From an uncultured Candidatus Saccharibacteria bacterium (GTDB taxonomy: Bacteria; Patescibacteriota; Saccharimonadia; CAILAD01; BJGX01): a stretch of 64,000 nucleotides of DNA. A program made the position numbers and the translations under genes. The notes beneath the pieces were generated by a model. That model saw only the letters and a program-made list of their open reading frames with translations, was not told the origin of the DNA and searched no databases. The stretch lies in contig CAZSVP010000002.1 in the NCBI GenBank assembly GCA_964610335.1, forward strand, positions 78,376-142,375, written 5' to 3'. Position 1 is the first letter of the stretch. The number at the start of each line of letters is the position of its first letter. This document shows, in pieces, positions 33,886 through 34,448 of the stretch.

Positions 33886-33974
33886 GATCACGTAATAATA
33901 CCAGATAGTACAATAAATTTCTAGTCCTAGAATGAAGCAGGACTCCTCGACCGGTAAGCCAAGAAGTCCTATTG

Positions 33975-34048
33975 TGGGCAGCGCGGGGTTCGAACCCGCA
34001 ACCTCCGGATTAAGAGTCCGACGCTCGTCCAATTGTCGCTTCCTGCCC
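33975..34048 (-). tRNA. tRNA-like element, Lys(CUU)-like, imperfect (possible pseudogene)
   Basis: Clean T-arm GCGGG-TTCGAAC-CCCGC and anticodon arm UCGGA-CUCUUAA-UCCGG; but 7:66 G-G mismatch and only 2 of 4 D-stem pairs when folded by hand. Confidence 0.45.
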
Positions 34049-34080
34049 TTGATTGTTTGAGGCACAATTCTAAGCCTTTG

Positions 34081-34170
34081 TGGACCAGGGCGGAATCGAA
34101 CCGCCACGCTGCTCGAGCAGTGAAGAAGACAAAAGCCTCTCGAACACCGACTAGCTGGGTAGTGAGTCCC
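34081..34170 (-). tRNA. tRNA-like 3' element (T-arm GGCGG-TTCGATT-CCGCC plus acceptor-like end); 5' part does not fold canonically
   Basis: T-arm and CTGGTCC-A 3' end are seen; the complementary GGGCCAG lies 113 nt upstream, so a standard 73-90-nt cloverleaf could not be drawn. Confidence 0.3.
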
Positions 34171-34275
34171 AACATGGTACCGAACACTGGCCCAGTGATC
34201 TCAGAAGAGCTGAGGGGAGTCGATCCCCTATCTTCCGCCGTAGCGGACGCATTACCGACAATGCTACAGCCCTAG

Positions 34276-34349
34276 CACGCCTGGTGGGACTCGAACCCAC
34301 AGCCTCTCCTTCGATTTCGGAGTGCTCTGTCCGATTGAGCTACAGGCGC
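34276..34349 (-). tRNA. tRNA-like element with canonical acceptor, D- and T-arms but a non-canonical anticodon loop
   Basis: GCGCCUG/CAGGCGU acceptor, GCUC..GAGC D-stem, GUGGG-UUCGAGU-CCCAC T-arm; anticodon arm CUCCG-AAAUCGA-AGGAG has a G-A mismatch and A at position 33. Confidence 0.45.
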
Positions 34350-34448
34350 CGCTCACCAATGATGGCCCTCCAAGTGGCGGCAGCCACGAGGCATTGGATT
34401 GCGTCGAAGAGCAATTGTACTCGCACTTGAGTACGATTGCAATACTCA

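Follow-up and report, generated by a model that had tools for sequence, protein, structure and literature searches.

A tRNA-like array upstream of tig in one Saccharibacteria sub-clade carries the alanine identity pair in two of its four units

The stretch of DNA analysed here (the window, 64 kb in full length) belongs to a member of the Saccharibacteria, in the candidate phyla radiation (CPR): among the proteins of genome and metagenome collections, nearly all of the closest relatives of its trigger factor (Tig) bear the label Saccharibacteria, the best of them at 55-63% identity. Its minus strand carries, in this order, recG, an open reading frame (ORF) for 260 amino acids, rsmD, tRNA-Leu(UAG), the two small ORFs ORF157 and ORF88, a promoter-like site, a structured leader, an array of four tRNA-like units designated W4, W3, W2 and W1, a terminator-like hairpin and tig; clpP, a gene for a major facilitator superfamily transporter, rpoB and rpoC are located downstream of tig (Table 1). 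Only 2, 11 and 32 nucleotides (nt) separate W4 from W3, W3 from W2 and W2 from W1, respectively. The tRNA-derived RNAs of the array are subject to structural selection and make up a transcription unit complete in itself. Three of the four units cannot decode in the normal way, and the alanine identity pair is present in two. Below, L-numbers (L001, L081 and so on) label the related loci and contigs with which the window was compared.

The original prediction had described four tRNA-like units on the minus strand, and these are indeed present at the positions claimed. With the Rfam tRNA model (RF00005), W4, W3 and W1 scored 53.1, 48.7 and 42.0 bits, all above the gathering score of 29; the outcome was thus neither four standard tRNAs nor an absence of matches, three of the four units lying above the threshold. 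ARAGORN, run on the window, reported W4 as 'Asp atc' (34275-34349) and W3 as 'tRNA-???' with a 2-nt anticodon (34204-34273), and missed W1 and W2. The tRNA models did not detect W2 either. A strict pattern combining an acceptor stem with a T arm found three sites in the entire window, namely tRNA-Leu, W4 and W2, compared with 0.1 sites on average, and never more than 1, in 100 dinucleotide shuffles. In view of the Rfam scores and of a top-half pattern far above the shuffles, the tRNA-like cluster is real and non-random. The labels that tRNA finders attach to array units, such as 'Asp(AUC)', 'Gly(ACC)', 'Pyl', 'SeC' or 'undetermined', can distort estimates of the tRNA complement and of the genetic code in metagenome-assembled genomes.

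The body of W4 is that of a textbook tRNA, with U8, a D loop containing GG and the T arm GUGGG-UUCGAGU-CCCAC; it has G1·U72 and G73, and CCA is not encoded. Positions 27-43 comprise 17 nt and allow two readings of the anticodon arm: either a 4-bp stem (CUCC/GGAG, 34322-34319/34309-34306) with the 9-nt loop GAAAUCGAA at 34318-34310, or a 5-bp stem with a G31·A39 mismatch and the loop AAAUCGA, in which position 33 is A. This unit had therefore rightly been called canonical except for its anticodon loop. W3 has the acceptor stem AGGGCUG/CAGCUCU, with G3 (34271) opposite U70 (34208), U73 and a normal D arm, followed by a 5-bp stem, UCCGC/GCGGA, that is capped by the tetraloop UACG (34242-34239) in a C(UNCG)G motif. 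Since this tetraloop replaces the anticodon loop, W3 has no anticodon. A shortened anticodon loop and a shortened T loop had both been ascribed to this unit. The former was found; the latter was not, the covariance-model alignment giving a T loop of 7 nt, AUCGACU, closed by an A-U pair and odd in having A54 for U54. The minimum-energy fold has an alternative T loop of 5 nt. W1, seen earlier as a Lys(CUU)-like element with a 7:66 mismatch and a weak D stem, fits that description: its acceptor stem GGGCAGG/GCUGCCC contains a G7·G66 mismatch, its D stem comprises 2 bp, and its canonical loop CUCUUAA at 34016-34010 holds the anticodon CUU (Lys); A73 is followed by CAA. W1 is the only one of the four units to comply with the rule of a 7-nt loop with U33 and a purine at position 37.

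On DNA comparison, the units are under purifying selection. Between the window and L081, L083 and L165, identity was 97-100% for W4, 96-99% for W2 and 95-100% for the leader, versus 89-91% for tig, and the array is near-identical in at least ten independent assemblies. The most widespread unit is the anticodon-less type, represented by W3 in the window and called unit A elsewhere. A covariation seed was built from seven W3/unit-A homologues, all from other lineages, aligned to one cloverleaf. In this alignment 96% of the cells were paired, versus about 50-62% when the partners were slid by 1-3 columns, and the observed pairing values were reached by none of 500 shuffles. Compensatory changes were seen at nine pairs, four of them among the six pairs of the former anticodon stem. 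All four helices of the anticodon-less type are kept by such changes, across lineages about 50% identical in Tig. A covariance model built without window sequences (model R1) found W3 at 52 bits, the E-values of this model being rough.

The loops, in contrast to the helices, drift. The stem of unit A is capped by UACG in three lineages, by UUCG in L003, and also by CUCG, AGUU and CCUA, and a long helix is found in L009, L087, L090 and L081. Another unit of the related arrays, unit C, has an identical stem, CGUCA/UGACG, in L002, L004 and L091, with the loops ACACCAU, CCAUCAG and AUGCCAU, respectively. The W1 loop, CUCUUAA in the window, is CGUCCAG in L081, with G33, and the helices of W1 are again kept by compensatory changes. 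The anticodon is thus not conserved among orthologous array units (W1, unit C), and U33 is absent from about 9 of 15 distinct non-A-type units, as judged from loops read by eye. Because the helices covary while the loops drift, what is under selection is the tRNA body together with G3·U70, and not decoding.

Alanyl-tRNA synthetase (AlaRS) recognises the G3:U70 pair and needs no anticodon. This pair is present in both W3 and W2, and in W2 it is accompanied by A73, G1:C72, G2:C71 and G4:C69. In the W3 family, G3·U70 was found in all seven seeds and in the other distinct members aligned (window, L165, L009, L090, L081); it was invariant while the pairs 1:72, 2:71, 5:68 and 6:67 varied. Judged from these acceptor stems, there would be an even chance that W3 and W2 are alanylated.

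W2 corresponds to an element originally noted as a T arm and acceptor end with a distant 5' partner. It spans 113 nt. Its acceptor helix, GGGCCAG/CUGGUCC, is fully paired over 7 bp, or over 8 bp with the flanking U included, and directly abuts the T arm; G3 is at 34191, U70 at 34084 and A73 at 34081. The T arm, GGCGG-UUCGAUU-CCGCC, is canonical. There is no D stem, a 14-nt connector standing in place of the D arm, and the unit further contains a 6-bp stem with the 8-nt loop ACUCACUA and an extra arm, in which an 8-bp stem carries an inner 4-bp stem-loop. The 3'-strand 25-mer GGCGGTTCGATTCCGCCCTGGTCCA, which covers the T arm and the acceptor, recurs exactly in four IMG/VR contigs. In three of these (L180, L182 and L183) it lies within a permuted transfer-messenger RNA (tmRNA) gene called by ARAGORN, the encoded tags being ANDERFSLAA, AANDSRFALAA and ANDSAYFGDLRLAA. 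The coding pieces of these tmRNAs open with UGGGCCAGU...UUGGG or ...CAGGG, resembling the 5' end of W2; they start with UGGGCCAGUCCUGGUUUCGAUUGGG and UGGGCCAGCCAUGGUUUCGACAGGG in L180 and L183, and W2 starts with UGGGCCAGUGUUCGGUACCAUGUUGGG. The two-piece genes occupy 10103-10421 in L180, 3748-4169 in L182 and 3841-4183 in L183, with an acceptor stem and a T arm as in W2, and L180 resembles a phage genome with a tmRNA of its own.

When W2 was searched against Rfam, only tmRNA models aligned, and these only over the T arm and the 3' strand. Among the models compared (RF00023, the permuted RF01849-51 and RF04321), beta_tmRNA scored 19 bits (threshold 84), tmRNA_permuted 13.9-17.5 bits (threshold 47) and cyano_tmRNA 15.1 bits (threshold 70). 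At 113 nt, W2 has no room for pseudoknots. We considered the possibility that W2 is a tmRNA with a tag, and rejected it: the frame after UAGUC (GVREAFVFFTARAAW...) exits W2 without a stop codon, and a 1-nt deletion shifts the frame in L081. An ARAGORN search for tmRNAs, normal ssrA included, found none in the window and none in 1.49 Mb of related loci. From its sequence, W2 would be best described as a tmRNA-type tRNA-like domain without the messenger part, and it probably descends from such a domain. Its T arm and acceptor are likewise tRNA-Ala-like, and its tmRNA matches score weakly.

These findings suggested that the four units form a functional operon of non-decoding tRNA-like RNAs, a reading to which we assign a probability of roughly 0.75. 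In the scheme that we propose, the operon would consist of the promoter-like site, the structured leader, W4, W3, W2, W1 and the terminator. RNase P would cut the precursor at the 5' end of each unit, RNase Z or exonucleases would trim it after position 73 or 74, and a CCA-adding enzyme would complete CCA post-transcriptionally, C74 being templated. AlaRS would charge W3 and W2 with alanine via G3:U70, and both would stay off the normal decoding path, since no codon pairing is possible. Their likeliest role would be that of tRNA/tmRNA mimics that carry alanine or at least bind AlaRS, EF-Tu or SmpB. Such mimics could serve a codon-independent reaction as alanine donors, or they could compete for AlaRS, EF-Tu, SmpB or the ribosomal A site and modulate ribosome rescue, comparably to an RNA of phage DS6A (see below). 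W4 and W1 would be accessory tRNA-body modules, and W1 may still read AAG in the window lineage. We regard the odds on the explanation as a whole, mechanism included, as balanced, and any particular downstream role as unlikely to be the right one.

Several observations weigh against this interpretation. W3 has U73 and A1:U72, versus the A73 and G1:C72 of standard alanine tRNAs; among its homologues, A73 occurs in L001, L003, L009, L081, L090, L096 and L097, and U73 in L002, L004 and L091. CCA is encoded in none of 44 array units, and if the lineage were without a CCA-adding enzyme, the units would not be chargeable. (CCA is encoded in all 112 canonical tRNA genes called by ARAGORN in the fetched Saccharibacteria loci, a narrow sample that consists entirely of tRNA-Leu.) No partner gene (for a Fem-type transferase, MprF, L/F-transferase, RqcH, SmpB, AlaRS, a CCA-adding enzyme or RNase Z) was seen among the window ORFs scanned against Pfam, which cover 15.6-22.7 kb and 30.7-63.3 kb. 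W2 remains far under every tmRNA gathering threshold (13.9-19 versus 47-84 bits), and its analogue of the D loop is without the GGUUUCGA motif of the tmRNAs that it otherwise matches; because of these two points, binding of SmpB by W2 is uncertain. W3 is dispensable, as it is missing in L083 and contains a long insertion in L081. Finally, the support from covariation is strong for the W3/unit-A family only; it is thin for W2, W4 and W1, whose known relatives are close. As to the 3' ends, C74 was present in 28 of 31 curated units (our own count) and was never followed by CA, the trailers being mostly CAA, CUG and CUA. This pattern fits a distinct route of 3' maturation in which CCA is partly templated, and it lends weak support to a tRNA-like mature end.

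We considered the possibility that the units are modules of processing or stability only ('tRNA punctuation'), which mark where RNase P and RNase Z cleave and provide folded caps, are never aminoacylated and have no function of their own. They would then define the ends of the ORF157-ORF88 mRNA in the window and of a 250-700-nt structured RNA in sister lineages, where the first unit abuts the 3' end of this large RNA in L004 (RNA at 2594-2985, unit at 2986), L002, L091, L001 and L096. Such a function would also be in keeping with the spacing of the units, which lie only 2-32 nt apart with other small hairpins between them, with the lack of an encoded CCA and with loops that are free while helices are kept, and it has a precedent in MALAT1/mascRNA (PMC8457004). 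Yet it leaves unexplained why G3·U70 occurs in every distinct member while adjacent pairs covary, as a neutral G·U would turn into G-C or A-U. It does not account for the need of three to five units in series, for the match of W2 to both halves of the tmRNA tRNA-like domain, or for the conservation of C74, and a promoter-like site belonging to the array itself lies downstream of ORF88. A pure processing role appears doubtful to us on these grounds. If, on the other hand, the units were odd but genuine decoding tRNAs (extra isoacceptors, of an expanded-loop or frameshift type, or with loops repaired by editing or by removal of an intron), this would agree with the fully canonical loop CUCUUAA of W1, with the strict conservation of the 9-nt loop of W4 among close relatives, and with the presence in related arrays of canonical-looking Phe GAA units (62-66 bits; L002, L004, L086, L091) and of a UCA-anticodon tRNA (75 bits; L091). 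It is improbable, however, in view of the 4-nt loop or long helix that W3 and its homologues carry for an anticodon loop, of the lack of the near-universal U33 in most other units, of the G33 and the different 'anticodon' in the W1 orthologue of L081, and of the freedom with which loops differ between orthologues with identical stems. Nor do the short introns evoked in the original prediction help: there is no segment whose removal would yield a 7-nt anticodon loop, the W3 tetraloop is stable, and the long insert of W2 is a helix that tolerates a 1-nt indel. The suggestion of non-standard CPR-type tRNAs holds for the CPR host and for the non-standard nature of these tRNA-like genes.

The third possibility raised, that of decaying tRNA or tmRNA copies (pseudogenes or integration scars next to tRNA-Leu), was given the lowest credence and we consider it very improbable. 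The content of the tRNA-Leu(UAG)-tig interval does vary between lineages, the G+C content at 34-36 kb is 51% versus about 47%, units have been gained, lost and expanded (W3 is absent from L083 and expanded in L081), and integration classically occurs at tmRNA and tRNA genes (PMC11915505). In decaying copies one would not, however, expect complete cloverleaves or top halves instead of 3' fragments, helices that are all maintained by compensatory changes over deep divergence, conservation of the array above the level of tig, or loops replaced by favoured UNCG-type tetraloops (UACG in three lineages, UUCG in L003). Direct repeats of the att type are absent, neither an integrase nor a phage gene was seen in the ORFs scanned, the array is surrounded by core genome, and it is bounded by a promoter-like site and a terminator of its own. 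The functional operon of tRNA-like RNAs thus remains our preferred reading. A phage origin was rejected as well: BLAST against 50,697 phage records returned a generic similarity of W4 to phage tRNA-Arg (about 80%) and short matches at chance level, one of them a 23-nt match of the array in a phage tmRNA (E = 0.5). YrlA was dismissed since it scored 22 bits against a threshold of 69, in an alignment that bridges two adjacent units; other Rfam families gave no match or one far below threshold. 'Hairpin B' of L002, L004 and L091 was examined as an ACCA-ended minihelix and rejected, its ACCA being buried in a second hairpin (GCGACCAC/GUGGUCGC). Typing of unit identity by BLAST against E. coli genomes gave no match.

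tRNA-shaped RNAs outside decoding are known from scattered cases, comprising tmRNA, cell-wall tRNAs, mascRNA and viral tRNA-like ends. A literature search on Saccharibacteria and tRNA-like RNAs found no paper on arrays such as these. W3 would work like an alanine-accepting minihelix or a tRNA-Ala minus its anticodon loop. Its family shares with these the acceptor stem, the D arm, an AGGUC-type variable loop, the T arm and the constant G3·U70, and differs from tRNA-Ala in the missing anticodon loop, the U discriminator of several lineages including the window, A54 or C54, and the lack of an encoded CCA. By the same analogy, W2 would work like the tRNA-like domain of tmRNA, yet it fails the tmRNA tests of score, tag frame and pseudoknots. 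tmRNAs without a coding sequence (CDS) have been described in jakobid mitochondria, as two plastid genes of about 65 bp, and in mycobacteriophage DS6A, where the CDS-less RNA inhibits the endogenous tmRNA (PMC11915505, which names among its sources Jacob et al. 2004 RNA 10:605 and Mao et al. 2009 RNA Biol 6:355). W2 resembles them in its acceptor with G3·U70 and A73, in its T arm, in having no D stem, tag frame or pseudoknots, and in the match of both its ends to permuted tmRNAs. Unlike them, it is chromosomal in a free-standing bacterial lineage and part of an array of tRNA-like units, has two extra hairpins, is without the GGUUUCGA motif and an encoded CCA, and fails the tmRNA thresholds.

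In Staphylococcus, non-proteinogenic tRNA-Gly isoacceptors build peptidoglycan bridges (PMC7826273). These, too, are tRNA copies diverted to codon-independent aminoacyl transfer and kept beside normal tRNAs; they have, however, a normal anticodon and are excluded by weak EF-Tu binding, whereas in the array it is the structure that rules out decoding, and the ORFs scanned in its neighbourhood include no Fem-type transferase. The large ornate RNAs GOLLD and ROOL have islands of tRNAs beside or within them (PMC12286853; PMC5737381). Similarly, the units of sister lineages directly follow a 250-700-nt structured RNA, and in L001, L096 and L097 a unit stands between its 5' and 3' structured parts, reminiscent of the tRNAs that sometimes occur in the GOLLD linker. 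There is, however, no Rfam match to GOLLD or ROOL and no phage context, and where sister lineages have the large RNA, the window has a pair of protein genes. mascRNA, at the 3' end of MALAT1 (PMC8457004), has in common with the array a tRNA-like fold without a proper anticodon loop, a fold that in mascRNA is a substrate of RNase P and RNase Z and ends another RNA; it is a single eukaryotic unit without an alanine identity element, whereas the array has four units and its own promoter-like site.

The array brings together a tRNA-Ala that lacks an anticodon and a tmRNA-like unit that lacks a messenger part. It belongs to the reduced genomes of CPR epibionts, organisms whose ribosome rescue and cell-envelope biochemistry are still poorly known. 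A conserved bacterial operon of this type would be a compact natural system in which the tRNA body is freed from the genetic code. It is conceivable, though we would not bet on it, that the sub-clade keeps alanine-charged non-decoders (an anticodon-less tRNA-Ala and a tag-less mini-tmRNA) for the mRNA-independent delivery of alanine. If this were true, the candidate processes would be tag-less ribosome rescue, Ala-tailing that feeds the quality-control genes of the adjacent tig-clpP region, and envelope aminoacylation; the system might replace or modulate canonical trans-translation in the lineage, and the rapid turnover of modules in the array would represent an adaptation of alanine delivery.

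Arrays of one to five odd units between tRNA-Leu(UAG) and tig were found in L001-L005, L009, L081-L083, L086, L087, L089-L091, L096, L097, L165-L172 and L184-L191. The next-closest genomes, L006-L008, are without an array; tRNA-Leu immediately precedes tig in L006, and in L007 and L008 it lies 0.65-1 kb ahead of this gene. The unit model gave no match in 71 further Saccharibacteria tig loci (785 kb). The array is thus a trait of one Saccharibacteria sub-clade. In L081 (7015-7215) and L083 (about 1050-1250), an extra module lies between W4/W3 and W2; it consists of a covarying element of about 100 nt and a class-II, Ser-like tRNA-like unit with a long variable arm and G73, of which the 'anticodon' loop is CAGUCUG (A33) or closed to 5 nt. 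In L083 this module stands where W3 would be.

The coordinates of the features are collected in Table 1. In the window, the leader folds with a minimum free energy (MFE) of -37.6 kcal/mol (z = -2.87), and none of 200 shuffles was equally stable. The promoter-like site preceding the array is kept in L081, L083, L165 and other assemblies. The clean tRNA-Leu(UAG) reported earlier was confirmed.

Table 1. Positions of the features around the array in the window and of the large structured RNAs in related loci
Feature	Locus	Positions	Strand	Basis or remark
recG	window	36692-38719	minus	
260-aa ORF	window	35913-36695	minus	conserved; between recG and rsmD
rsmD	window	35378-35905	minus	
tRNA-Leu(UAG)	window	35283-35369	minus	ARAGORN and Rfam; canonical, CCA encoded; upstream edge of variable locus
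ORF157	window	34712-35185	minus	upstream gene pair with ORF88, ATGA overlap
ORF88	window	34449-34715	minus	stop codon precedes structured leader
Promoter-like site (TTGCAA, 17 nt, TACAAT)	window	34414-34442	minus	consensus scan; putative function
Structured leader, two hairpins	window	34350-34448	minus	MFE fold; from ORF88 stop codon to W4
W4	window	34276-34349	minus	Rfam tRNA, ARAGORN
W3	window	34205-34273	minus	Rfam tRNA, ARAGORN, model R1
W2 (113 nt)	window	34081-34193	minus	fold (z = -2.18), top-half pattern
W2-W1 spacer	window	34049-34080	minus	possible small hairpin AGGC...GCCU, by eye only; variable among assemblies
W1	window	33975-34048	minus	Rfam tRNA
Terminator-like hairpin (15 pairs)	window	33938-33971	minus	strong; closes array; tig promoter-like site next
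tig promoter-like site	window	33895-33923		between terminator-like hairpin and tig
tig (trigger factor)	window	32614-33885	minus	start at 33885; translation; Pfam Trigger_N, FKBP_C, Trigger_C on orthologue
Large RNA	L004	2594-2985		
Large RNA	L002	1414-1789		
Large RNA	L091	2985-3354		
Large RNA	L005	3147-3404		
Large RNA	L001	4338-4877		
Large RNA	L096	838-1535		3' part at 1609-1790
Large RNA	L097	1-714		
Large RNA	L009	~3455-3753		
Large RNA	L086	~150-391		

ORF157 and ORF88, the upstream neighbours of the array, are perhaps co-transcribed with it. In a search of 5.8 billion proteins, ORF157 had four clusters of homologues (59-83% identity) and ORF88 two, always in the same gene order, and every one of these homologues is located between tRNA-Leu and the array. 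Neither protein matched anything in Pfam, PHROG or PADLOC, and the AlphaFold model was unusable (mean predicted local distance difference test score, pLDDT, of 42.6). Both ORFs have a raised G+C content. Their identity to relatives is mosaic, with 71% for ORF157 and 97% for ORF88 against L083, which suggests recombination. The conserved 260-aa ORF had a sub-threshold match to the Pfam zinc-dependent phospholipase C family (22.8 bits, versus a cut-off of 26.8).

The scanned ORFs of the window are core genome, with GatB, DnaE, L19, RNase HII, NusA, ClpB, RadA, PBP1, RecG, RsmD, S7 and EF-G, and a class-I aminoacyl-tRNA synthetase domain was found on the L081 orthologue. At some distance from the array, a segment of about 4 kb (17900-22100) with a G+C content of 53-56%, versus about 47%, contains plus-strand ORFs (NUDIX, an AAA_28 ATPase and unknowns) and splits the usual str operon between fusA (15636-17747) and rpsG (22235-22711). 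Possibly this segment is an insertion of foreign DNA.

The conserved structured RNA of 250-700 nt mentioned above comes after a promoter in sister lineages and runs directly into an anticodon-less G3·U70 unit; the window holds ORF157 and ORF88 in its place. This large RNA starts with the motif (C/G)UUUUG(U/A)ACCU at its 5' end, several of its helices covary, and a GUAC/GUAC helix may close its 5' and 3' ends. It matches no Rfam family; the large RNAs of L004 and L096 had no match to GOLLD or ROOL at E-values up to 5-10, and the window had none to these two families either. The large RNA may be a new class of non-coding RNA linked to tRNA-like units. We considered the possibility that it is a detached messenger domain of tmRNA, and rejected it as no conserved tag-like ORF was found. 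Matches to its 5' motif in viral contigs (L174-L179) were also discarded: L176 and L178, which were inspected, look like chance matches in coding DNA, and tRNA-like units were not found in any of the six contigs.

The tRNA-Leu-tig locus is a hot spot of gene-content change. Lineage-specific small ORFs occupy parts of this interval in L001 (3560-4230 and 5360-5930), L096 (150-720 and 2020-2590), L097 (1200-1745) and L003 (1130-1730); one, of about 170 aa, lies upstream on the opposite strand, and two, of about 80-110 aa, lie downstream of the RNA. In L004 and L005 the interval contains murA instead, and greA is present in L004 and partly in L002. The UCA-anticodon tRNA of L091 is located at 3859-3930 and is well formed, with the loop CUUCAAA and G73. 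ARAGORN labels it SeC; it could potentially read UGA, and the lineage is presumed to have the standard genetic code.

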